The notes beneath the pieces are model-generated. The model was not told the DNA's origin and made no database searches. It saw nothing but the letters and a program-made list of their open reading frames with translations. Below are positions 1 to 40,877 of a stretch of 40,877 nt of DNA, in pieces. Position 1 is the stretch's first letter. Each line of letters opens with the position of its first letter. This DNA comes from a virus. The position numbers were made by a program, and so were the translations under genes. Location: the UHGV virus genome UHGV-1515682, one strand, 5' to 3'.

Positions 1-46
1 TTAACAGCTAACTCATAGCAACTCATTCCTATTCAGATACTAATTT

Positions 47-73
47 AACCCTCTGTTTTTACAGAGGGTTTTT
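47..73 (+). other. Candidate attL core / terminator-like hairpin (aaccctctgt-tttt-acagaggg + T-run)
   Basis: 8-bp stem ccctctgt/acagaggg followed by T-run; 25/27 identical to 40742-40768 at the other end of the phage gene block. Confidence 0.45.
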
Positions 74-135
74 GTTTTTATGTATTCATTTCTATTCACT
101 CTACACCATATTTTTTGGCGGTACAGGTGACGGTA

Positions 136-150
136 TTACCTTAAAGGTAT
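136..150. promoter_or_regulatory. Dyad operator-like site ttaccttaaaggtat upstream of integrase
   Basis: Matches recurring TTACC-N5-GGTAA motif (one mismatch); flanked by inverted copies of tgacggtat (128-136) and ataccgtca (159-167). Confidence 0.45.
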
Positions 151-192
151 ACTCTCATACCGTCATGAAAATGGTTTCTATACGGGTGAATT

Positions 193-1443
193 GTGCTTAC
201 CGATACAAAATTAAAGAACCTCAAGCCACAGGACAAACTGTACAAAGTTTCCGATCGTGACGGGCTGTATGTAGCTGTGCTTACGTCAGGTACGGTCTCG
301 TTTCGCTATGACTACCGTATCAACGGTCGCCGCGAAACACTGGTAATCGGGCAGTATGGGCGTGACGGTATCAGCCTGGCAGAAGCGCGAGAAGAACTGA
401 TTGCTGCAAAGAAGCTGCTTAAAGCAGGCCAGTCGCCGGCTGCGGCTAAACGTGACGGTATCAAAAAGATTCGTGGTGCCGAGACGTTTGCGGTACATAC
501 CGACAGTTATATGAAACACGTCATCCTGGCTGACAGTACCCGCGCAATGAAGCAGGCGGTGATCGACCGTGACATACTTCCGGTTCTTGGCAACAAAATG
601 ATGACTGAAATTACCACATCGATGGTTCGTGATTTGTGTGACCGGATTGTCGAACGCGGTGGTCGGGCAACAGCAGTACAGGCAAGGGAGATCATCAGCA
701 GCGTATACCGTCACGCCAATGACCGTGGTCATGGTTTGTTTAATCCTGCGGCTGACATTAAACCTTCGTCTATCGCCATATTTAAACCAAGAGAGCGAAC
801 ACTGACACCAGAAGAAATTGGCCTGTTCTTCCGCACGCTGGATGCCATTGGTGCTATGGGCACTATGAAAATGGCTTTAAAGCTGGTGCTTATCACTATG
901 GTTCGTAAAGGCGAATTCACCAACGCAACGTGGGATGAAATAGATTTTAAAAAATGGACATGGACAATTCCTTCAGACCGCATGAAGGGAAGCCGGGCGC
1001 ACGTTATTTACCTGCCTAAACAGGCTCAGGATATATTGGTCGGGTTGCAGATGTGCGCTGGTGGAAGTGAATATCTGGTTCCTGGTCGTTACAATTTCCG
1101 GAAGCCATTATCTAATGCCGCGTTGAACTCTCTGATCGACAGAACGGTGAAAATAATAAATGAAGATGGTGAGCATATTCAGGGCTTCACCGTACACGAT
1201 ATGCGCCGTACAGCCAGTACGTTGTTGCATGAGGCTGGTTATCCTTCAGACTGGATTGAAAAGGCTCTGGCACATGAGCAGAAAGGTGTGCGCGCCGTAT
1301 ATAACAAAGCGGAATACGCCAGACAGCGCGCCTACATGTTGCAGCAGTGGGCCGATATGATTGATTCCTGGATTAACGGGGAGCATACGGATCTGATTCC
1401 GTTCTCCCCGTCGAAGTTTGAGAAGTGGATGGCGGGGGAATAA
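193..1443 (+). CDS. int: Phage tyrosine integrase (site-specific recombinase), GTG start
   Basis: 416 aa ORF; C-terminal HDMRRTASTLL...YNKAEY region typical of tyrosine recombinase catalytic domain; N-terminal arm-binding-like domain; position at prophage edge. Confidence 0.9.
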   Translation: MLTDTKLKNLKPQDKLYKVSDRDGLYVAVLTSGTVSFRYDYRINGRRETLVIGQYGRDGISLAEAREELIAAKKLLKAGQSPAAAKRDGIKKIRGAETFAVHTDSYMKHVILADSTRAMKQAVIDRDILPVLGNKMMTEITTSMVRDLCDRIVERGGRATAVQAREIISSVYRHANDRGHGLFNPAADIKPSSIAIFKPRERTLTPEEIGLFFRTLDAIGAMGTMKMALKLVLITMVRKGEFTNATWDEIDFKKWTWTIPSDRMKGSRAHVIYLPKQAQDILVGLQMCAGGSEYLVPGRYNFRKPLSNAALNSLIDRTVKIINEDGEHIQGFTVHDMRRTASTLLHEAGYPSDWIEKALAHEQKGVRAVYNKAEYARQRAYMLQQWADMIDSWINGEHTDLIPFSPSKFEKWMAGE

Positions 1444-1446
1444 CGT

Positions 1447-1641
1447 TTAATAGTTCTGCTGATTTTCTTCCATCTCTGCTTCTGCTGCCAGTGATTCAAT
1501 TTTGTTTTCGAATATTGCTGACAGTGTTGCAAATTCAGCATCAGTGACAGCGGGAATTGGAACAAACCTGATCCCGCTGTGTGCAAGCATGTTTGCAGTT
1601 TCAAGGCATTTTCTTAAATCTGCTGGTGATGCCCTGTTCAT
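1447..1641 (-). CDS. Hypothetical small protein (64 aa) translationally coupled to methyltransferase
   Basis: ATG at 1641-1639 overlaps methyltransferase stop (ATGA); shorter version of ORF 1447..1761. Confidence 0.35.
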   Translation of the reverse strand: MNRASPADLRKCLETANMLAHSGIRFVPIPAVTDAEFATLSAIFENKIESLAAEAEMEENQQNY

Positions 1642-2288
1642 GCAGCACGCTCCCGCCCCTGGTTGTCTGTTGGTGACATCGGAGCATTGCTGAATGCATT
1701 TGTTAATCCGCCAATATCCAACGCGTATCCAGGGTGTAGTTGCACTGCCGGGTCTTCGCACTGATTACCCCAAACATCGAAGCCATGAGACGTCTGGCGG
1801 GCGAACAGTTCAATGCGAGAAACATCGCCTAATAATTGCACAAGTTTTTCACGAACGATATCTGGCTTTCTTGAATGCCCAAGCCGCGGTGCGATAAATG
1901 ACTGAACGATCCCTGCATTAATGCGCGTAGGTAGTTTTCCCTTTACCGCAAACAGGCAATCTTCACTATTGGCGCGAGTCATGTGTCCCATACCCATAAC
2001 CAGTTTATCTGGTTGTCGACTACCACATTTTATCCACGTGAAGCCCTTCATCGTCATCAGACGGAATCCCCAGGCTTCAACAACTTTTAGTGCTTCGAGT
2101 GGTTGTGTTGGCACCCACCACATGGCCAACAGACAGTTTTCATCGGCCAAATCCCACACAGGAAGGCGGCAGATATCCAGCACACTCATAACCGGATATT
2201 TAAAACCGGCACCGCGATTACCATCTGCGGCTTTGTCCCGGTATACCCAGGGTGGATCTGCATAGATTAGTGTGTATTTCTTAGTCAT
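1638..2288 (-). CDS. MT-A70 family N6-adenine DNA methyltransferase (orphan, no cognate nuclease seen)
   Basis: N-terminal LIYADPPW motif (DPPW catalytic motif) and overall MT-A70-like sequence; start taken at ATG 2288 (MTKKYTLIYADPPW). Confidence 0.8.
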   Translation of the reverse strand: MTKKYTLIYADPPWVYRDKAADGNRGAGFKYPVMSVLDICRLPVWDLADENCLLAMWWVPTQPLEALKVVEAWGFRLMTMKGFTWIKCGSRQPDKLVMGMGHMTRANSEDCLFAVKGKLPTRINAGIVQSFIAPRLGHSRKPDIVREKLVQLLGDVSRIELFARQTSHGFDVWGNQCEDPAVQLHPGYALDIGGLTNAFSNAPMSPTDNQGRERAA

Positions 2289-2580
2289 AAACCACCCCAC
2301 AACATCCTATGCCGCTATAGTCGCCACGGCGAAGTCCGTTACCTTTTGTGATACATTGGTCCCTGCGAACCGCGATCCTTGCACGTTCAACATCACCAGA
2401 AGCAACATCCATACACTGAAGCCAAAGGTGAGCGGCAATGCGGAATTGCCCTTTTTTCTCTCTTTCAATCGCGCGTTTTTCGATCTCTATCGCCGCAGGA
2501 GTAACGGCGACAATCTTTGACGGACTGCGCATTGAAACCTTATTCATGTGATATTTTTCAAGTCGGCTTAACTTTCTCAC
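2281..2580 (-). CDS. Hypothetical protein (99 aa), GTG start with GAGGG RBS
   Basis: ORF upstream of and overlapping methyltransferase start; no recognisable motif. Confidence 0.45.
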   Translation of the reverse strand: MRKLSRLEKYHMNKVSMRSPSKIVAVTPAAIEIEKRAIEREKKGQFRIAAHLWLQCMDVASGDVERARIAVRRDQCITKGNGLRRGDYSGIGCCGVVYD

Positions 2581-2689
2581 TTAATCCAACCCTCTCTGAA
2601 AATTAATGCCAGCAGATAAAGCCATGCTGAAACAGAGGCCAGGAATAAGTACCATCCTGACCATTTGCTCCAGTGCCTTAGCAGCGCAC

Positions 2690-2938
2690 TCATGCAGCGT
2701 TGCTCACGGGACGATATACACGTTGCTGAACAGGAGGTTTTTTACCCTGGAACTCTGCCGGGCTTGCTGCCTGACGTTCATCAAGCCAACGCTCAACTTC
2801 GTCACGGTTCCATGCGCAGCGTTTGTCAGTGATATACCAGCGTTTAGGAAATTCCCCTGCGCGCTCCATACGGTCGATAGTGCTCCATGACAGTGGCACC
2901 ACCGCCAGGAGTTCCTTCTTACCTAATGCACCTTTCAT
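2690..2938 (-). CDS. AlpA-like / excisionase-like HTH regulator
   Basis: 82 aa; LLAVVPLSWSTIDRMERAGEFPKRWYITDKRCAWNRDEVERWL resembles AlpA/Xis-type winged HTH; strong RBS; near integrase. Confidence 0.7.
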   Translation of the reverse strand: MKGALGKKELLAVVPLSWSTIDRMERAGEFPKRWYITDKRCAWNRDEVERWLDERQAASPAEFQGKKPPVQQRVYRPVSNAA

Positions 2939-2987
2939 AAATACCTCTCTTGGTTGCAGTGCGGCGCGTGTGGCGCCGCGGTGGTGG

Positions 2988-3869
2988 TTACATAGATGTT
3001 TCGTTTAATTCTTCCCGACGAACGCTGTAAACGTCGGTGGCTTTTGCCAGCAGTTCGTCATCATCTGAAAGTTTTTGTGCAATGTATTTGTAAGCCTTAT
3101 CCAGTTCGGAGACAGTGCTGTAATTCATCGCTGCGCTGGTAAAGGCCATCAGCATTTCTTCTGGATCACGGCTATCCGCTTTACGAGTTTGCTCATCAGG
3201 CTTTTTCACTGGTTTAGCGTTGATCAGACTGTTCATTCCCGCAGCAGTAGTTGTTTGCGGAGTAATGTCTCGCTCAACGCGCGGTGCCGTTTCCTGTAAT
3301 TCGTCAGGGGTGTAAACACCGAGAAGCACATCAGGAGCGTGCAGGCGAGCCCATCGTTTCGTGCAAAGATAGGCAAGCTGCTGGCGCGGATCCTGTTCCC
3401 ACAATGGAGAGTTACGCACTCCGGCTTGCGCCATACTGATGGTAAGCTCACGGGGTTCTGCTTCTCCTTTAAGAACTGCTGACACAGTTACCGTCAGATT
3501 CGGTGATTTATCTGTTTTGCCGTTAACATTCGACCAGTCACCGCTCCAGCGATAATTCAGGCGTGTCGCCAGCAGGCTGGAAGAGGATACGACCGCGTTT
3601 ACCAACTGTGCTTCGTAGCCTAACGTTCCGTTTACCACATGCGTTTTCTGCGCCACGGCGAAAGGGTTCATTCCCCACTGTGCCGCCTGCATGGTCACCG
3701 CCAGACAATCGGCAGGTTTGCCTTCAAGATGTTTCGGTACAGTCGCTTTGCTTTGTGACATCAACTCCGCGAAACGCACCAGTTGATTCATGCCCTCCGG
3801 GCTGAAGATTGCCGCAGCAGTACCTACAGTTGCACCTGGTTGTGATGTGATTGCGATATCATTGCTCAT
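2988..3869 (-). CDS. recT: RecT-like single-strand annealing protein
   Basis: 293 aa; SPLWEQDPRQQLAYLCTKRWARL segment resembles the conserved RecT C-terminal region; sits directly downstream of and coupled (ATGA) to a PD-(D/E)XK exonuclease as in recE-recT pairs. Confidence 0.6.
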   Translation of the reverse strand: MSNDIAITSQPGATVGTAAAIFSPEGMNQLVRFAELMSQSKATVPKHLEGKPADCLAVTMQAAQWGMNPFAVAQKTHVVNGTLGYEAQLVNAVVSSSSLLATRLNYRWSGDWSNVNGKTDKSPNLTVTVSAVLKGEAEPRELTISMAQAGVRNSPLWEQDPRQQLAYLCTKRWARLHAPDVLLGVYTPDELQETAPRVERDITPQTTTAAGMNSLINAKPVKKPDEQTRKADSRDPEEMLMAFTSAAMNYSTVSELDKAYKYIAQKLSDDDELLAKATDVYSVRREELNETSM

Positions 3870-4687
3870 ACGTACATATCCTGTTTACGTGCCCAGTCAG
3901 GGCGTTTAATAATTTCCACTCCGCCCCACTCATCGTTGATGCGGCATTCGTGATAGGTATTCAGATCCCGGCGGAACAGAGCGTGCCCGGCATCGACATC
4001 CTGCGCATCCAGCTCGAACACGCGTACCGGATACCGACCACAATCAATGCTTTCGCTCACGGCAAGAAAGAAAAAACCATGCGGCTGACCAGTAACCCTC
4101 ATTGCTCCTTCGCGGTACATTGCGTCCTGCACGTGGTAGCGGAATTCCTCGATGTGGCGTGCAAAACGGTCCATATCTGCAACCTTTTTCACGTCGACGA
4201 TCACGTTGTGCTCGTTCAGCCATTTATCTGGACGAATTCGGCACAACTCACCCGTCTCTTCATCGTTCCAGTACATTGATGCTTCGCAGTAACCAGGTGC
4301 TTCCAGCATCCAGCGTGCCGCCGGGTGAGCCATTGCGCTATCACGCATCAGCTCCAGTTTCCGCCACTGCTCGGCATCAAGTACCGTAATCCCCATATCC
4401 GCTACATCACGAAGAAATGCTTCTTCGTCAGCTTTACCTTGTTTCGTCCGACGATCGAATTTCGGTGAAACAATGAAGCGTTTGTCGAACTCTCCAGGCT
4501 CCAGAAGCAGACAGTGCAATGCGGTTCCCATATCCAGTGCAGACTTTTTCTCTTCGTCTTCTGGTGCTGCCTGAACCCATTTAAGAAGCGCCGGATTCTT
4601 GGCAACCATGTCCAGTTGCGACTTACTCACGCCGTCACCGGCGTGGTAGTCTTCGTTGCTGATGTCGAAATAAATTCCCGGTTTCAT
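3866..4687 (-). CDS. PD-(D/E)XK exonuclease (RecE-like/YqaJ-like recombination exonuclease)
   Basis: 273 aa; acidic/Lys motifs (IVDVKK) consistent with PD-(D/E)XK fold; operon partner of annealase. Confidence 0.6.
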   Translation of the reverse strand: MKPGIYFDISNEDYHAGDGVSKSQLDMVAKNPALLKWVQAAPEDEEKKSALDMGTALHCLLLEPGEFDKRFIVSPKFDRRTKQGKADEEAFLRDVADMGITVLDAEQWRKLELMRDSAMAHPAARWMLEAPGYCEASMYWNDEETGELCRIRPDKWLNEHNVIVDVKKVADMDRFARHIEEFRYHVQDAMYREGAMRVTGQPHGFFFLAVSESIDCGRYPVRVFELDAQDVDAGHALFRRDLNTYHECRINDEWGGVEIIKRPDWARKQDMYV

Positions 4688-6202: not shown

Positions 6203-6217
6203 TTACCGTTGAGGTAA
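6203..6217. promoter_or_regulatory. Dyad operator-like site ttaccgttgaggtaa (OL-proximal)
   Basis: Perfect TTACC-N5-GGTAA; overlaps -10/+1 of predicted leftward promoter. Confidence 0.55.
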
Positions 6218-6245
6218 TAATTATGCTTATTTGGTTTGGTGTCAA
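6217..6245 (-). promoter_or_regulatory. Putative leftward early promoter (PL-like): TTGACA-17-AATTAT
   Basis: Minus-strand TTGACA (6245-6240) and AATTAT (6222-6217) with 17-nt spacer, flanked by two dyad sites 62 bp apart. Confidence 0.45.
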
Positions 6246-6292: not shown

Positions 6293-6316
6293 AAAAAAGC
6301 CGCCATGAGGCGGCTT
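6293..6316 (-). terminator. Rho-independent terminator after repressor gene
   Basis: Minus-strand hairpin GCCGCC-TCAT-GGCGGC followed by T6 (A-run 6293-6298 on + strand). Confidence 0.6.
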
Positions 6317-15917: not shown

Positions 15918-15994
15918 TGGCGTGGCATGCAGGATTCGAACCTGCGACCAACCGCTTAGAAGGCGGTTGCTCTGTCCAACTGAGCTAATGCCAC
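15918..15994 (-). tRNA. tRNA-Arg (anticodon UCU)
   Basis: Hand-folded cloverleaf: acceptor GTGGCAT/ATGCCAC, D-arm GCTC…GAGC, anticodon stem ACCGC/GCGGT with loop CTTCTAA, T-arm GCAGG-TTCGAAT-CCTGC, discriminator G, encoded CCA. Confidence 0.85.
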
Positions 15995-33758: not shown

Positions 33759-34445
33759 TCAGAAGAACCCTGCCTTGTCGTTGATGTACTCCGCGTGCGT
33801 CTGGATATCACGCAGGCATTTGCTCACACCAACGATGTAACAGAACATGGTGGTCAGCTCCGCCGCCGCGCCCGATACGTCGTGCCCGTCTTCCTGTAAC
33901 TGGTTCAGCAGATTCATCAGCAGTGAGTTCTCCGTCAGGCCGAGAACACCAGACGGCGAATGAATCAGGCTACGGTAGCCTGGCTTCAGTGGGGCACTGT
34001 AGGTTTTGTTCTCTATCTTCATCGCCTGCATTACTGCTGACGCCGTGGCGTTGGCTACCTGGTCGGCAACCATCTTTATGCGTTCTTCCTGCGGGAGCGA
34101 GTTTTTAATGTAACTTCCGGTGCGGCGGATCTGAGGAAGAACCTCACCTGTAACCCATTTACGAAAGCGGTATGGGATAGTGCCTGGTGTCACCGCATCG
34201 CGGCAGCGGAGGATCAGTGTGTAGAGGCCTGACTCGTTGATAATATTGGTTTCGCCTTGACGGCCTAAGTTAAATTTAGCCCTTTCATCATCATCAAGAG
34301 ATTTTATTGACATAGTGGGGTTTGTCAGTTGAAGAGCTTTAATAACGTCTTTGGCAACAAACCAAGGATTTCCATCAATAACAATGGCTCGAATGGTTGC
34401 TTCTGATTCAAAATGAAAAACAGATGGGGTTACGTTAGCAGTCAT
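33759..34445 (-). CDS. Bro-N domain antirepressor-like protein
   Basis: 228 aa from ATG 34445; N-terminal Bro-N signature (FHFESEATIRAIVIDGNPWFVAKDV…GLYTLILR…RFRKWVTGEVLPQIRRTGSY); C-terminal ~70 aa homologous to the product of 35591-35848. Confidence 0.75.
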   Translation of the reverse strand: MTANVTPSVFHFESEATIRAIVIDGNPWFVAKDVIKALQLTNPTMSIKSLDDDERAKFNLGRQGETNIINESGLYTLILRCRDAVTPGTIPYRFRKWVTGEVLPQIRRTGSYIKNSLPQEERIKMVADQVANATASAVMQAMKIENKTYSAPLKPGYRSLIHSPSGVLGLTENSLLMNLLNQLQEDGHDVSGAAAELTTMFCYIVGVSKCLRDIQTHAEYINDKAGFF

Positions 34446-34721
34446 AGTGATCACCTTTGTAGTTAGGTTAATCACCACTACCGACGCCAATCGGTTGGTG
34501 GTGAACTGTGCAGGGTTGGCGTAACCGGCTACAAAGGACCCGGCGCACCTTTCGGTGCCCCCACACAGCCCACCATAGAATAGGTGCGCTTTACACATAA
34601 AAAAACCGCTTATGCGGCATATGTGCCTCTGTAGTAATCCGGGACGCCAATCCCGGCACTGGATTTTGCCAGTGCCCGATTACTATGGCACAAGAGGAGT
34701 GCGATGTAAATTTACCGTAAA

Positions 34722-34839: not shown

Positions 34840-35568
34840 ATGGAAGTTTTCTGGATAGTTGTTGGTGTGGTTGCGGTGATTATTTACGTTATCAACCAGA
34901 ACAAGACTAAGATCTCTGATCGTACGGTCGTTAATCATAACAAAACGATAAAGACCGAAGATGGGGAGATAACGATTAATCGTACACAGGTGATAGAACA
35001 CACCTCTACTCAGTTTCAAAAAACTGGAGGTAATGCGCCTAATATTTCCGCACCTCCTGCTTATGATAGTGCGGTAATCCAGACATATTATAAACAGCAG
35101 GAGTTAGCAAAAGAGAGGCAACTGATTCAGCCAAAGCCGTTTACAGCTGAGATTCCACCTGGAGTGTCAACGCGTCCGGCATATCATGGAAGATTCCCTG
35201 GTGATGACATATCGTCTCAGTCATCTAAAAAAGCACCTCAGGCAATATCAGAGCCAGCAAGAATACCTTCTGTATCGCCGCCAAAAGAAGAATCAGCTAA
35301 CAGAGTTTCAAGTGGTAGCAAGCAGTGCTTGCGATGCAGAATAAACCTTCCATATGAAAAATTCAGGAAATCGTCAAAAAATCCAGATGGATTGACTAAA
35401 TGGTGTGCAAGGTGTCTCGATGGCCCAAAGAATACACGCCATATGAAGTGGTGCCCAATTTGTAATGTCCGCAGAAAACGAACCAGCTTTTACCCTAATA
35501 ATCAAAATGCGGACGGCTTAATGGCATGGTGCAAAACGTGCTGGGATGAGCACAAAGCGAAACGATAG
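34840..35568 (+). CDS. Membrane-anchored protein with two C-terminal zinc-ribbon-like repeats
   Basis: 242 aa; N-terminal TM helix; repeated C-x2-C…DG…W-C-x2-C units. Confidence 0.55.
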   Translation: MEVFWIVVGVVAVIIYVINQNKTKISDRTVVNHNKTIKTEDGEITINRTQVIEHTSTQFQKTGGNAPNISAPPAYDSAVIQTYYKQQELAKERQLIQPKPFTAEIPPGVSTRPAYHGRFPGDDISSQSSKKAPQAISEPARIPSVSPPKEESANRVSSGSKQCLRCRINLPYEKFRKSSKNPDGLTKWCARCLDGPKNTRHMKWCPICNVRRKRTSFYPNNQNADGLMAWCKTCWDEHKAKR

Positions 35569-40741: not shown

Positions 40742-40768
40742 AACCCTCTGTTACTACAGAGGGTTTTT
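40742..40768 (+). other. Candidate attR core / terminator hairpin (aaccctctgt-tact-acagaggg + T-run)
   Basis: 25/27 identical to 47-73; follows last phage gene. Confidence 0.45.
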
Positions 40769-40877
40769 TGTGCACAGAAAACCCCCAGCTAGGCTGGGGG
40801 TTCCGGAAAGCTTTCAGCTTTGAGCCAGTTATTAAAACCCCTTTTGATTTGTTAAAACACCTTGCGGTCTGGCAACT

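Follow-up and report, generated by a model that had tools for sequence, protein, structure and literature searches.

A solitary MT-A70 methyltransferase gene and its small neighbours at the integrase end of a phiV10-like prophage

When a methyltransferase gene lies between two small genes whose starts and stops overlap its own, is this a three-gene system or one gene among passing neighbours, and what does the enzyme modify? The question is raised by positions 1447–2580 of UHGV-1515682, a virus genome of 40,877 nucleotides that was analysed whole and is called the window here. To judge from its sequence, the window is an entire phiV10/epsilon15-like podovirus prophage of Escherichia coli; in a near-identical genome the prophage sits immediately downstream of guaA. 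A first-pass annotation had placed an orphan MT-A70 adenine methyltransferase in this interval, in a coupled three-gene cassette, and all three open reading frames (ORFs) are indeed found there, on the minus strand. The block is present in 539 of 5426 complete E. coli genomes (~10%), and all three proteins are already in public databases. There is nothing new in the presence of the block, and the methyltransferase is an ordinary, already catalogued lone gene.

The methyltransferase gene (1638–2288, minus strand) encodes 216 residues. Residues 5–176 cover profile positions 1–172 of 172 in Pfam PF05063 (MT-A70), with E=1.3e-22 and 80.9 bits against a cut-off of 23.9. In PHROGs the match is to phrog_359, “DNA methyltransferase” (E=8e-119), and the best PADLOC model is MTase_II, named “Type II methyltransferase” (E=3e-76); NCBIfam has no model matching either this protein or the DUF1382 protein described below. 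Catalytic motif IV, the DPPW already recognised in the first-pass annotation, occupies residues 11–14 (2247–2258, minus strand; GATCCACCCTGG translated), and the motif order is permuted, with DPPW at the N-terminus, before the SAM-binding region. The nearest PDB structures by sequence are Tetrahymena MTA1 (7f4r, E=1e-14) and METTL3 (E=2e-6); the MTA1 alignment sets DPPW on DPPW and continues through the C-terminal ...RKP...ELFAR region. The protein is thus a predicted N6-adenine methyltransferase; SAM-dependent N6-adenine methyl transfer has been demonstrated for homologues only (PMC10810198). Two other identities were considered and rejected: M.EcoGI and M.EcoGII, the non-specific prophage enzymes, are 349-residue DPPY proteins, and M.EcoGIX is plasmid-borne and single-strand-specific.

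Public collections contain the methyltransferase sequence exactly (WP_201352284.1). Compared with diverged homologues, the methyltransferase and PerC genes have dN/dS of ~0.06–0.09, ratios that are approximate because dS is saturated. Such values indicate purifying selection on both genes and, together with the exact proteins in public collections, show that the three ORFs are real genes and not chance ORFs.

The flanking genes had been described as unknown; both in fact belong to named families. Upstream is a PerC-family gene (2281–2580, minus strand), which encodes 99 residues from a GTG at 2580 or 83 residues from the ATG at 2532 that PGAP calls. The first 16 residues are conserved in 27 homologues, so we favour the GTG start. 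The family assignment comes from Pfam PF06069 (E=6e-7; 30.1 bits, gathering cut-off 22.6) and from phrog_868, “transcriptional activator,” which matches residues 1–99 of 99 (E=6e-62). NCBI names the identical protein “PerC family transcriptional regulator,” and the sole NCBIfam match, to ANR_neg_reg, is sub-threshold. The AF2 model (mean pLDDT 72.6) has a three-helix core and an N-terminal helix, with no classical DNA-binding motif; a fold search against PDB gave no significant match, the best (E 0.33) being to MIT/TPR-like three-helix modules. Downstream is the DUF1382 gene (1447–1641, minus strand), encoding a 64-residue homologue of lambda Orf63. It matches Pfam PF07131 with E=1.8e-30 (105.2 bits, cut-off 27) and PDB 8DSB, lambda Orf63 itself, with E=8.5e-13 and 49% identity over 61 residues; it is 51% identical to gp4 of phage phiPA8.

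How far does the string of overlapping genes extend? The DUF1382 start and methyltransferase stop overlap in ATGA (1638–1641), and the methyltransferase start and PerC stop overlap in ATGACTAA (2281–2288), so the overlaps reported on both sides of the methyltransferase are confirmed. The PerC GTG in turn overlaps, in GTGA (2577–2580), the stop of a 38-residue predicted membrane protein (2577–2693, minus strand; phrog_17484, E=2.6e-27), and this ORF overlaps by 4 nt (2690–2693) the gene for an 82-residue AlpA/excisionase-like helix-turn-helix protein (2690–2938, minus strand; Pfam Phage_AlpA, E=3e-5; phrog_66, “excisionase and transcriptional regulator,” E=2e-16). This makes a string of five genes or more, and a limit of three is arbitrary. 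Further upstream in the same leftward operon, also on the minus strand, are genes for a RecT recombinase (2988–3869; Pfam RecT, E=1e-31, and PHROGs) and a PD-(D/E)XK exonuclease (3866–4687; Pfam DUF3799, E=1e-22, and PHROGs).

A consensus scan finds a pL-like sigma-70 promoter candidate, TTGACA-17-AATTAT with 10 of 12 matches, at 6217–6245 on the minus strand, just downstream of a repressor-like gene and its terminator (6297–6316). From this candidate to position 1447 there is no minus-strand terminator-like site. Immediately before the PerC and methyltransferase genes the scan, a crude one, shows nothing promoter-like, and the nearest such site on the minus strand is 4 kb upstream. We infer that 6217–6245 functions as a promoter under control of the repressor. 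The early-left operon is ~4.6 kb long, with the methyltransferase, PerC-like, and DUF1382 genes at its far end. Convergent on it is the tyrosine integrase gene (193–1443, plus strand; Pfam Arm-DNA-bind_3, Phage_int_M, and Phage_integrase), whose stop is 3 nt from that of the DUF1382 gene.

Are the small genes constant companions of the methyltransferase? Among 45 diverse loci its neighbours fall into 24 unrelated clusters upstream and 26 downstream. Overlaps of 1–11 nt with the methyltransferase gene are found for 36 of 39 upstream and 32 of 42 downstream neighbours; start/stop overlap is therefore generic in such operons. Related prophages have other genes between PerC and the methyltransferase (two in Tyrion and SPC32H), the DUF1382 gene is upstream of the methyltransferase in L213, L214, and L217, some phages carry a phosphatase gene in place of DUF1382, and some distant relatives have a DndB-like or ParB-like gene directly upstream. 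Given the many neighbour clusters, the intervening genes, and the upstream position of DUF1382 in some prophages, the three genes do not form a conserved cassette. A constant partnership with DUF1382 was rejected too: of the 45 surveyed loci, only the window and those of Stx phages have this gene after the methyltransferase. No covariation of the methyltransferase C-terminal tail with the type of upstream gene was seen either: phiPA8 and phage 06-3462 have this tail in common but different upstream genes, and the tails of PerC-associated methyltransferases are unrelated.

It is worthwhile looking at what else occupies the same position. Fifteen loci have the same RecT-AlpA-PerC-...-int backbone, and in these prophages the slot always contains a lone methyltransferase, drawn from four families: MT-A70 in nine, phage Dam (PF05869) in three, N6_N4_Mtase (PF01555) in two, and a C5+Dam fusion in one. 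Phage Dam, C5+Dam, and N6_N4_Mtase are classical DNA methyltransferase families. The integrase gene follows the slot, either directly or after one or two small ORFs. Pfam, PADLOC, and PHROGs, run on its window-specific ORFs, revealed no restriction endonuclease in the 40.9-kb window, a ~98% identical prophage has none in its PGAP annotation over the part aligned to the window, and none of the 15 loci has an endonuclease-like ORF. The status of the gene as a solitary (orphan) methyltransferase is therefore supported. Such a lone slot fits a phage DNA-modification or anti-restriction role. The earlier suggestion of an anti-restriction or regulatory function stands to that extent; it had left out of account the rRNA activity of the closest studied homologue.

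That homologue is gp5 of the Stx2a phage phiPA8, also named M.EcoPA8orf6770P (PMC10810198). Residues 1–187 of the window enzyme are 82.9% identical to it, with no gaps, and in a global alignment the last ~30 residues, from about residue 180, are unrelated to the phiPA8 tail. The published activity of phiPA8 gp5 on DNA, including DNA with unmethylated GATC, is weak; with the upstream protein PNB-2 it consumes >13-fold more SAM on RNA, with 16S rRNA and 30S subunits preferred (PMC10810198). It binds the product of its upstream coupled gene in a 1:1 complex, is reported to methylate 16S rRNA with its partner and to raise spontaneous prophage induction, and loses the phenotype when DPPW is changed to APPA (PMC10810198). 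For M.EcoGV of E. coli O104:H4, PMC6602927 gives a PacBio-determined site of GATC, and PMC10810198 describes weak expression in its host. O104:H4 C227-11 carries the phiPA8-type block at 99.1% identity, and there are two copies in 95NR1 and one in 95JB1. The same copy numbers are given for M.EcoGV homologues in these papers, and because they agree, M.EcoGV is probably the MT-A70 enzyme of phiPA8 type. The published activities of phiPA8 gp5 and M.EcoGV conflict, GATC DNA versus 16S rRNA, and the activity of the phiV10-type enzyme would have to be read from them by homology.

On balance, we lean towards a solitary phage MT-A70 DNA adenine methyltransferase, probably GATC-specific, encoded in an early-left operon where its neighbours are separate accessory genes. 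The varied neighbours in 45 loci and the slot exchange in 15 prophages are what lead us there. The enzyme, of the beta class of MT-A70, would fill a “methyltransferase slot” beside the integrase end of a phiV10/epsilon15-like prophage. Its gene would be second-to-last in an operon of unknown genes, exonuclease, RecT, AlpA/Xis-like, 38-residue ORF, PerC-like, methyltransferase, and Orf63-like genes, with transcription probably beginning at the pL-like promoter near 6217–6245. The enzyme would then be made upon infection or induction, and not in stable lysogens. Its most likely substrate is DNA and its recognition site probably GATC, by analogy with the Stx-phage orthologue M.EcoGV. A likely role is full adenine methylation of rapidly replicating phage DNA, which might guard against methylation-sensitive restriction or host processes acting on under-methylated GATC. 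The PerC-like and Orf63-like genes would be accessory genes of a variable region equivalent to lambda exo-xis, not subunits of a three-gene system.

In favour of this reading are the Pfam, PHROG, and PADLOC family matches, the PDB relatives with aligned DPPW, the signs of purifying selection, the phiV10-like context beside guaA, and an upstream promoter-like site with no terminator before 1447. To these can be added the lack of an endonuclease, the exchange with classical DNA methyltransferase families, the 82.9% identity to phiPA8 gp5, and the GATC site reported for M.EcoGV. Against it, phiPA8 gp5 is weak on DNA and prefers 16S rRNA or 30S subunits with PNB-2 (PMC10810198), specificity is argued from a homologue to which the last ~30 residues are unrelated, slot exchange is indirect evidence, host Dam would make GATC methylation superfluous in E. 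coli, and repressor control of the promoter is itself a supposition. The GATC count of the prophage, 149 observed versus 158–203 expected, says nothing either way.

The first-pass annotation had proposed that no new methylated motif in lysogens would count against its claim. An absent motif would refute nothing, since the gene sits at the tail of an operon that a pL-like promoter feeds and so is probably not expressed in lysogens, and any methylation at GATC, the site reported for M.EcoGV, would be hidden there by that of host Dam.

The biochemistry of phiPA8 gp5 suggests another reading, which we regard as unlikely: a partner-dependent 16S rRNA m6A methyltransferase, expressed at a low level in lysogens, that tunes translation and spontaneous induction, with the PerC-like or Orf63-like protein as adaptor in place of PNB-2. 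Besides the identity in the catalytic domain and the properties of the phiPA8 complex, it can appeal to the second subunit that MT-A70 enzymes often need (PMC10810198) and to the coupled small gene that precedes the window methyltransferase. The DUF1382 gene, moreover, is conserved downstream in both phage types and, to judge from the reverse primer, which matches L004 1634–1655, was included in the published expression constructs. However, PNB-2 is absent from the window, and the idea that the PerC-like protein is a diverged PNB-2 was rejected (no blastp match; hhalign probability 0.2%). The C-terminal ~27 residues of phiPA8 gp5 proposed for PNB-2 binding (PMC10810198) are replaced in the window enzyme. 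In same-backbone prophages the PerC gene is also upstream of Dam, C5, and N6_N4 methyltransferases, often with genes between, and the phiPA8 work did not identify the modified rRNA base (PMC10810198). Could the enzyme instead be an epigenetic regulator in the lysogen, whose methylation of prophage or host DNA sites alters expression or the lysis-lysogeny switch? Orphan methyltransferases can regulate epigenetically, as Dam and CcrM do. The shift in spontaneous induction caused by the phiPA8 homologue would be explained equally well by DNA methylation, and a stationary-phase promoter for gp6-gp5 is given in PMC10810198 from unpublished RNA-seq. Nevertheless, this is distinctly unlikely: the nearest minus-strand promoter-like site lies 4 kb before the PerC and methyltransferase genes, the phiPA8-like terminator and separate promoter are not seen in this stretch of the window, and expression of M.EcoGV is reported as weak.

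A dedicated module of PerC-like regulator or adaptor, methyltransferase, and Orf63-like factor is very improbable. The overlapping stops and starts speak for it, as do the PerC-domain genes directly upstream of the methyltransferase in 5 of 39 diverse loci (in some cases with a fused winged helix) and the MT-A70 gene ≤2.5 kb downstream in 19 of 22 non-phiV10 PerC-like loci in IMG/VR, a survey biased by its seeds, which were methyltransferase-linked PerC sequences. But overlap is generic in these operons, gene order varies and phosphatase can replace DUF1382, and lambda has Orf63 with no such methyltransferase. Least credible is a leftover of a restriction-modification system, its endonuclease lost or encoded elsewhere, for all that the top PADLOC model is a type II one and restriction-modification methyltransferases are among the prokaryotic relatives of MT-A70 (PMC4738411). 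Neither the window nor the same-backbone loci have an endonuclease-like ORF, and small ORFs or the integrase gene always follow the slot.

As it stands, the gene carries little weight, being a catalogued accessory of a prophage common in E. coli. Its clade, however, has been reported both as a GATC DNA methyltransferase (M.EcoGV) and as a partner-dependent 16S rRNA methyltransferase by which Shiga-toxin phage induction is raised (phiPA8 gp5). The phiV10-type enzyme is a natural comparison, with the reported partner missing and the slot filled by classical DNA methyltransferases in sister prophages, and so bears on whether the clade acts on DNA by default. There is a slim chance that the phiV10-type enzyme, in ~10% of complete E. 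coli genomes, is ribosome-modifying with an exchanged targeting subunit, a PerC-type three-helix protein or Orf63-like dimer for PNB-2; the recurring linkage of PerC-domain and methyltransferase genes in unrelated lambdoid prophages hints at this. If true, phage rRNA methyltransferases would form a family whose adaptors can be swapped, and PerC-domain proteins would gain a role as methyltransferase partners.

How does the locus compare with known systems? The block of phiV10 (NC_007804) and TL-2011b, with its “putative adenine methylase,” carries all three genes, ordered as in the window, at 97.9–98.1% DNA identity, annotated as DNA methyltransferase, transcriptional activator, and DUF1382 family protein; there is essentially no difference, and the window is another copy of a published phage type. 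The Dam (PF05869), N6_N4_Mtase (PF01555), and C5+Dam enzymes of sister prophages likewise stand between a PerC-like gene and int on this prophage backbone. They are unrelated or only distantly related to MT-A70; the equivalence is one of position and may extend to function. phiPA8 gp5 shares the MT-A70 fold and the TLIYADPPW motif at the N-terminus and is also solitary, encoded towards the int end of its temperate phage, with a coupled small gene before it and a DUF1382 gene after. The upstream gene differs, being PNB-2 (winged helix) in phiPA8 and PerC-family in the window, as does the carrier, a Stx-converting member of the Sepvirinae versus a phiV10-like Uetakevirus type. phiPA8 also has a terminator just upstream of gp6 and a reported promoter for gp6-gp5, neither found in the window.

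The eukaryotic MT-A70 enzymes Tetrahymena MTA1/AMT1 and human METTL3 have a DPPW and a C-terminal SAM-binding region that align with the prophage protein; they are heteromers acting on ApT DNA or mRNA, whereas the prophage enzyme is a bare catalytic domain of ~190 residues with a short tail. With the PerC/Pch family (EPEC PerC; EHEC PchA-E) the PerC-like protein has in common the PF06069 core, small size, prophage-borne gene, and helical character, the core being matched by residues 35–80 only. Unlike those regulators, it is encoded by a conserved backbone gene of Uetakevirus-like prophages, and a role as ler/LEE activator is putative. The LEE is absent from the window. In lambda no methyltransferase adjoins Orf63, and the dimeric fold and pro-lytic effect of Orf63 are shown for lambda and Stx phages, whereas the prophage protein is known from sequence. 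The lambda gene nevertheless has the same kind of place, in the exo-xis region between recombination genes and int on the early-left transcript (PMC10869804).

The methyltransferase gene (1638-2288, minus strand; 216 aa) is an intact member of the MT-A70 family, as the first-pass annotation had proposed, with a match to the whole Pfam domain (E=1.3e-22; 80.9 bits against a cut-off of 23.9) and a DPPW motif encoded at 2247-2258 on the same strand. It also matches PHROG 359 "DNA methyltransferase" (E=8e-119) and the PADLOC Type II methyltransferase model (E=3e-76), and its closest solved structures are Tetrahymena MTA1 (E=1e-14) and human METTL3 (E=2e-6), with the DPPW motif aligned. Both this gene and the PerC-like gene upstream are under purifying selection (dN/dS of 0.06-0.09 against diverged homologues, with dS saturated and the ratios approximate). 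The enzyme is solitary, again as proposed: a search throughout the window found no restriction endonuclease. At its C-terminus, a 242-aa ORF of unknown function (34840-35568, plus strand; phrog_6762) weakly resembles endonuclease VII, HNH, and Lar-like restriction-alleviation zinc-ribbon motifs. This ORF, some 32.5 kb away from the methyltransferase gene, does not look cognate. The phiV10-type C-terminal tail (residues ~180-216, window 1638-1750) carries NAPMSPTDNQG, and a Kluyvera locus (L091) has a similar motif, NAPLAPTDNQG, in an independent small ORF that follows a shorter methyltransferase. The tail may have originated by fusion with a downstream gene.

Three minus-strand ORFs fill 1447-2580, and the overlaps described for them are real: ATGA (1638-1641) is common to the methyltransferase stop and the start of the downstream gene, and ATGACTAA (2281-2288) to the PerC-like stop and the methyltransferase start. 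They do not end there, however. A 38-aa membrane ORF (2577-2693) has its stop codon overlapped by the PerC-like GTG and itself overlaps an AlpA/Xis-like gene (2690-2938), and RecT, a PD-(D/E)XK exonuclease, and two unknown genes lie further upstream in the same leftward string. The sole strong promoter-like site on the minus strand (6245-6217, TTGACA-17-AATTAT) lies just beyond a repressor-like gene with its terminator; from there to 1447 the minus strand showed no terminator-like site, and the operon converges head-on with the integrase gene, the stop codons being 3 nt apart. Taken together, these features place the three genes at the distal end of the early-left operon, the counterpart of the lambda exo-xis region. 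The candidate promoter would be repressed in lysogens. In the 49-nt gap between the RecT and AlpA/Xis-like genes there is a perfect 7-bp GC hairpin (GCGGCGC-CACAC-GCGCCGC, 2961-2979, minus-strand transcript), which, lacking a T run, does not qualify as a classical terminator and may have a role in RNA stability or processing.

The flanking ORFs, first described as unknown, belong to named families. The upstream protein (2281-2580, minus strand) belongs to the PerC family (PF06069, E=6e-7, above the gathering score), with a full-length match to phrog_868 "transcriptional activator." Its first 16 residues are conserved across 27 homologues, and we therefore favor the 99-aa reading from the GTG at 2580 over the 83-aa PGAP call. 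Its AF2 model (mean pLDDT 72.6) has an N-terminal helix followed by a three-helix core and gave no significant match in the PDB, the nearest, non-significant ones being MIT/TPR-like peptide-binding modules. The downstream protein (1447-1641, minus strand) is a DUF1382 member (E=1.8e-30) that matches the structure of lambda Orf63 (PDB 8DSB; E=8.5e-13, 49% identity over 61 residues), a dimeric early exo-xis-region protein with pro-lytic effects (PMC10869804).

What did not hold was the cassette as a unit. Among 45 diverse loci encoding relatives of the methyltransferase (58-100% identical), its start is overlapped by 1-11 nt by the upstream ORF at 36 of 39 loci and its stop, to the same extent, by the downstream ORF at 32 of 42, so overlap is generic in these operons. 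BLAST sorts the neighbors into 24 unrelated clusters upstream and 26 downstream, including DUF1317, a DndB-like protein, a small winged-helix protein, YbcO, and RusA-like proteins; DUF1382 follows the methyltransferase only in the window and in Stx-phage loci. Fifteen loci share the same backbone (RecT, AlpA, 38-aa ORF, PerC, variable genes, methyltransferase, small ORFs, int, guaA). All 15 have a lone methyltransferase ahead of int, but its family differs: MT-A70 in nine, phage Dam (PF05869) in three, N6_N4_Mtase (PF01555) in two, and a C5 + Dam fusion in one, a same-position exchange with classical DNA methyltransferases. As variable genes also separate PerC from the methyltransferase, and DUF1382 at times lies upstream of the latter, PerC is a backbone gene and the methyltransferase is exchangeable cargo of a "DNA methyltransferase slot." The order in the window is one permutation among several.

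The three-gene block is also already known and ordinary. Of 5426 complete E. coli genomes, 539 carry it, with the annotations MT-A70, PerC, and DUF1382; all three proteins match existing database entries exactly (e.g., WP_201352284.1), and the 1134-bp blocks of phiV10 and TL-2011b are 97.9-98.1% identical to it.

PerC and methyltransferase genes are also linked in unrelated lambdoid prophages (L107, L109, L110, L111, L129-L150). Of 39 diverse loci, five encode a PerC domain in the coupled upstream gene: by itself in the window, L110, and L111, and behind a fused N-terminal winged helix in L107 and L109. A C-terminal Y-S/A-G-I/V motif is conserved in all five proteins. An IMG/VR search, biased in that it was seeded with methyltransferase-linked PerC sequences, gave 22 non-phiV10 PerC loci, 19 with MT-A70 within 2.5 kb downstream (identity to the window's enzyme down to 38%), usually in the order Rep, winged-helix-PerC, ParB-HTH protein, MT-A70. 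In L130, PerC directly precedes a 720-aa C5+Dam fusion instead. We regard this linkage as a lead, not a finding; conservation of gene order among phages could account for it.

The window consists of an entire phiV10/epsilon15-like podovirus prophage, integrated directly downstream of guaA. It is collinear with a prophage annotated in E. coli TUM13773, to which it is about 98% identical along most of the alignment. One terminator-like hairpin (AACCCTCTGTT...ACAGAGGGTT plus T run) is present at both ends of the prophage (47-70 and 40742-40768), probably a duplicated guaA terminator/att region; past the right-hand copy lies the host sRNA STnc490 (Rfam; 40780-40877, truncated where the window stops). 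Between the terminase and portal genes the phage carries a tRNA-Arg (anticodon TCT; 15918-15994, minus strand). At 34494-34675 (minus strand), Rfam reports C4 antisense RNA (79.5 bits) and isrK (76.8 bits), located at the start of an anti-repressor gene (Ant/Bro-N, 33759-34598) and immediately upstream of it; these matches look like a P1/P7-type antisense immunity element.

On balance, we favor a solitary DNA N6-adenine methyltransferase, probably GATC-specific, which would be made from the early-left operon upon infection or induction and would act on, and so perhaps protect, replicating phage DNA. The first-pass annotation's choice of an anti-restriction or regulatory orphan stands in part. 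The methylation sequencing of lysogen versus cured strain suggested earlier would probably be blind to the enzyme, as the gene is likely silent in lysogens and host Dam masks GATC methylation. An epigenetic regulator active in lysogens is improbable. A dedicated three-gene module, which the overlaps had suggested, is more doubtful still given the varied neighbors, and a restriction-modification remnant is scarcely credible.

The main rival, which we consider unlikely, is a partner-dependent rRNA methyltransferase. It is based on the sole biochemistry available for the clade, that of the Stx2a-phage homologue phiPA8 gp5 (M.EcoPA8orf6770P; Gong, Chakraborty and Koudelka, PMC10810198). Alone, gp5 has weak, non-specific activity; it binds PNB-2, encoded by the coupled gene upstream of it, in a 1:1 complex whose SAM consumption is >13-fold better on RNA than on DNA and which shows a preference for 16S rRNA/30S. 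The phiPA8 enzyme increased spontaneous induction and virulence, and a DPPW-to-APPA mutant was without effect; the authors did not identify the base modified, and they suggest that the last 27 residues of gp5 may bind PNB-2. The published reverse primer matches the 3' end of gp3 (L004, the phiPA8 locus, 1634-1655), so the "holoenzyme" constructs also included gp3 and the DUF1382/Orf63 homologue gp4. Against this rival, both the defining partner and the tail are missing: PNB-2 is absent from the window, and no similarity to it was detected in the PerC-like protein.

For the DNA methyltransferase that we prefer, the comparison with known enzymes is as follows. Residues 1-187 are 82.9% identical to gp5 without gaps, whereas the tails are unrelated from about residue 180; DUF1382 lies downstream in both (51% identity). 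M.EcoGV, a homologue over-expressed alone, methylated GATC in DNA, a site assigned by PacBio sequencing, according to Fang et al. 2012 as cited in PMC10810198 and by Forde et al. (PMC6602927). O104:H4 C227-11 has the phiPA8-type block at 99.1% identity; strain 95NR1 holds two copies of it and 95JB1 one, the copy numbers that Forde et al. list for M.EcoGV homologues, which ties M.EcoGV to the MT-A70 type of the window. Beyond that, the window's enzyme is of interest only in offering a natural test of this clade's disputed substrate, set between a gp5/PNB-2 complex reported to prefer RNA and an M.EcoGV reported to methylate DNA.
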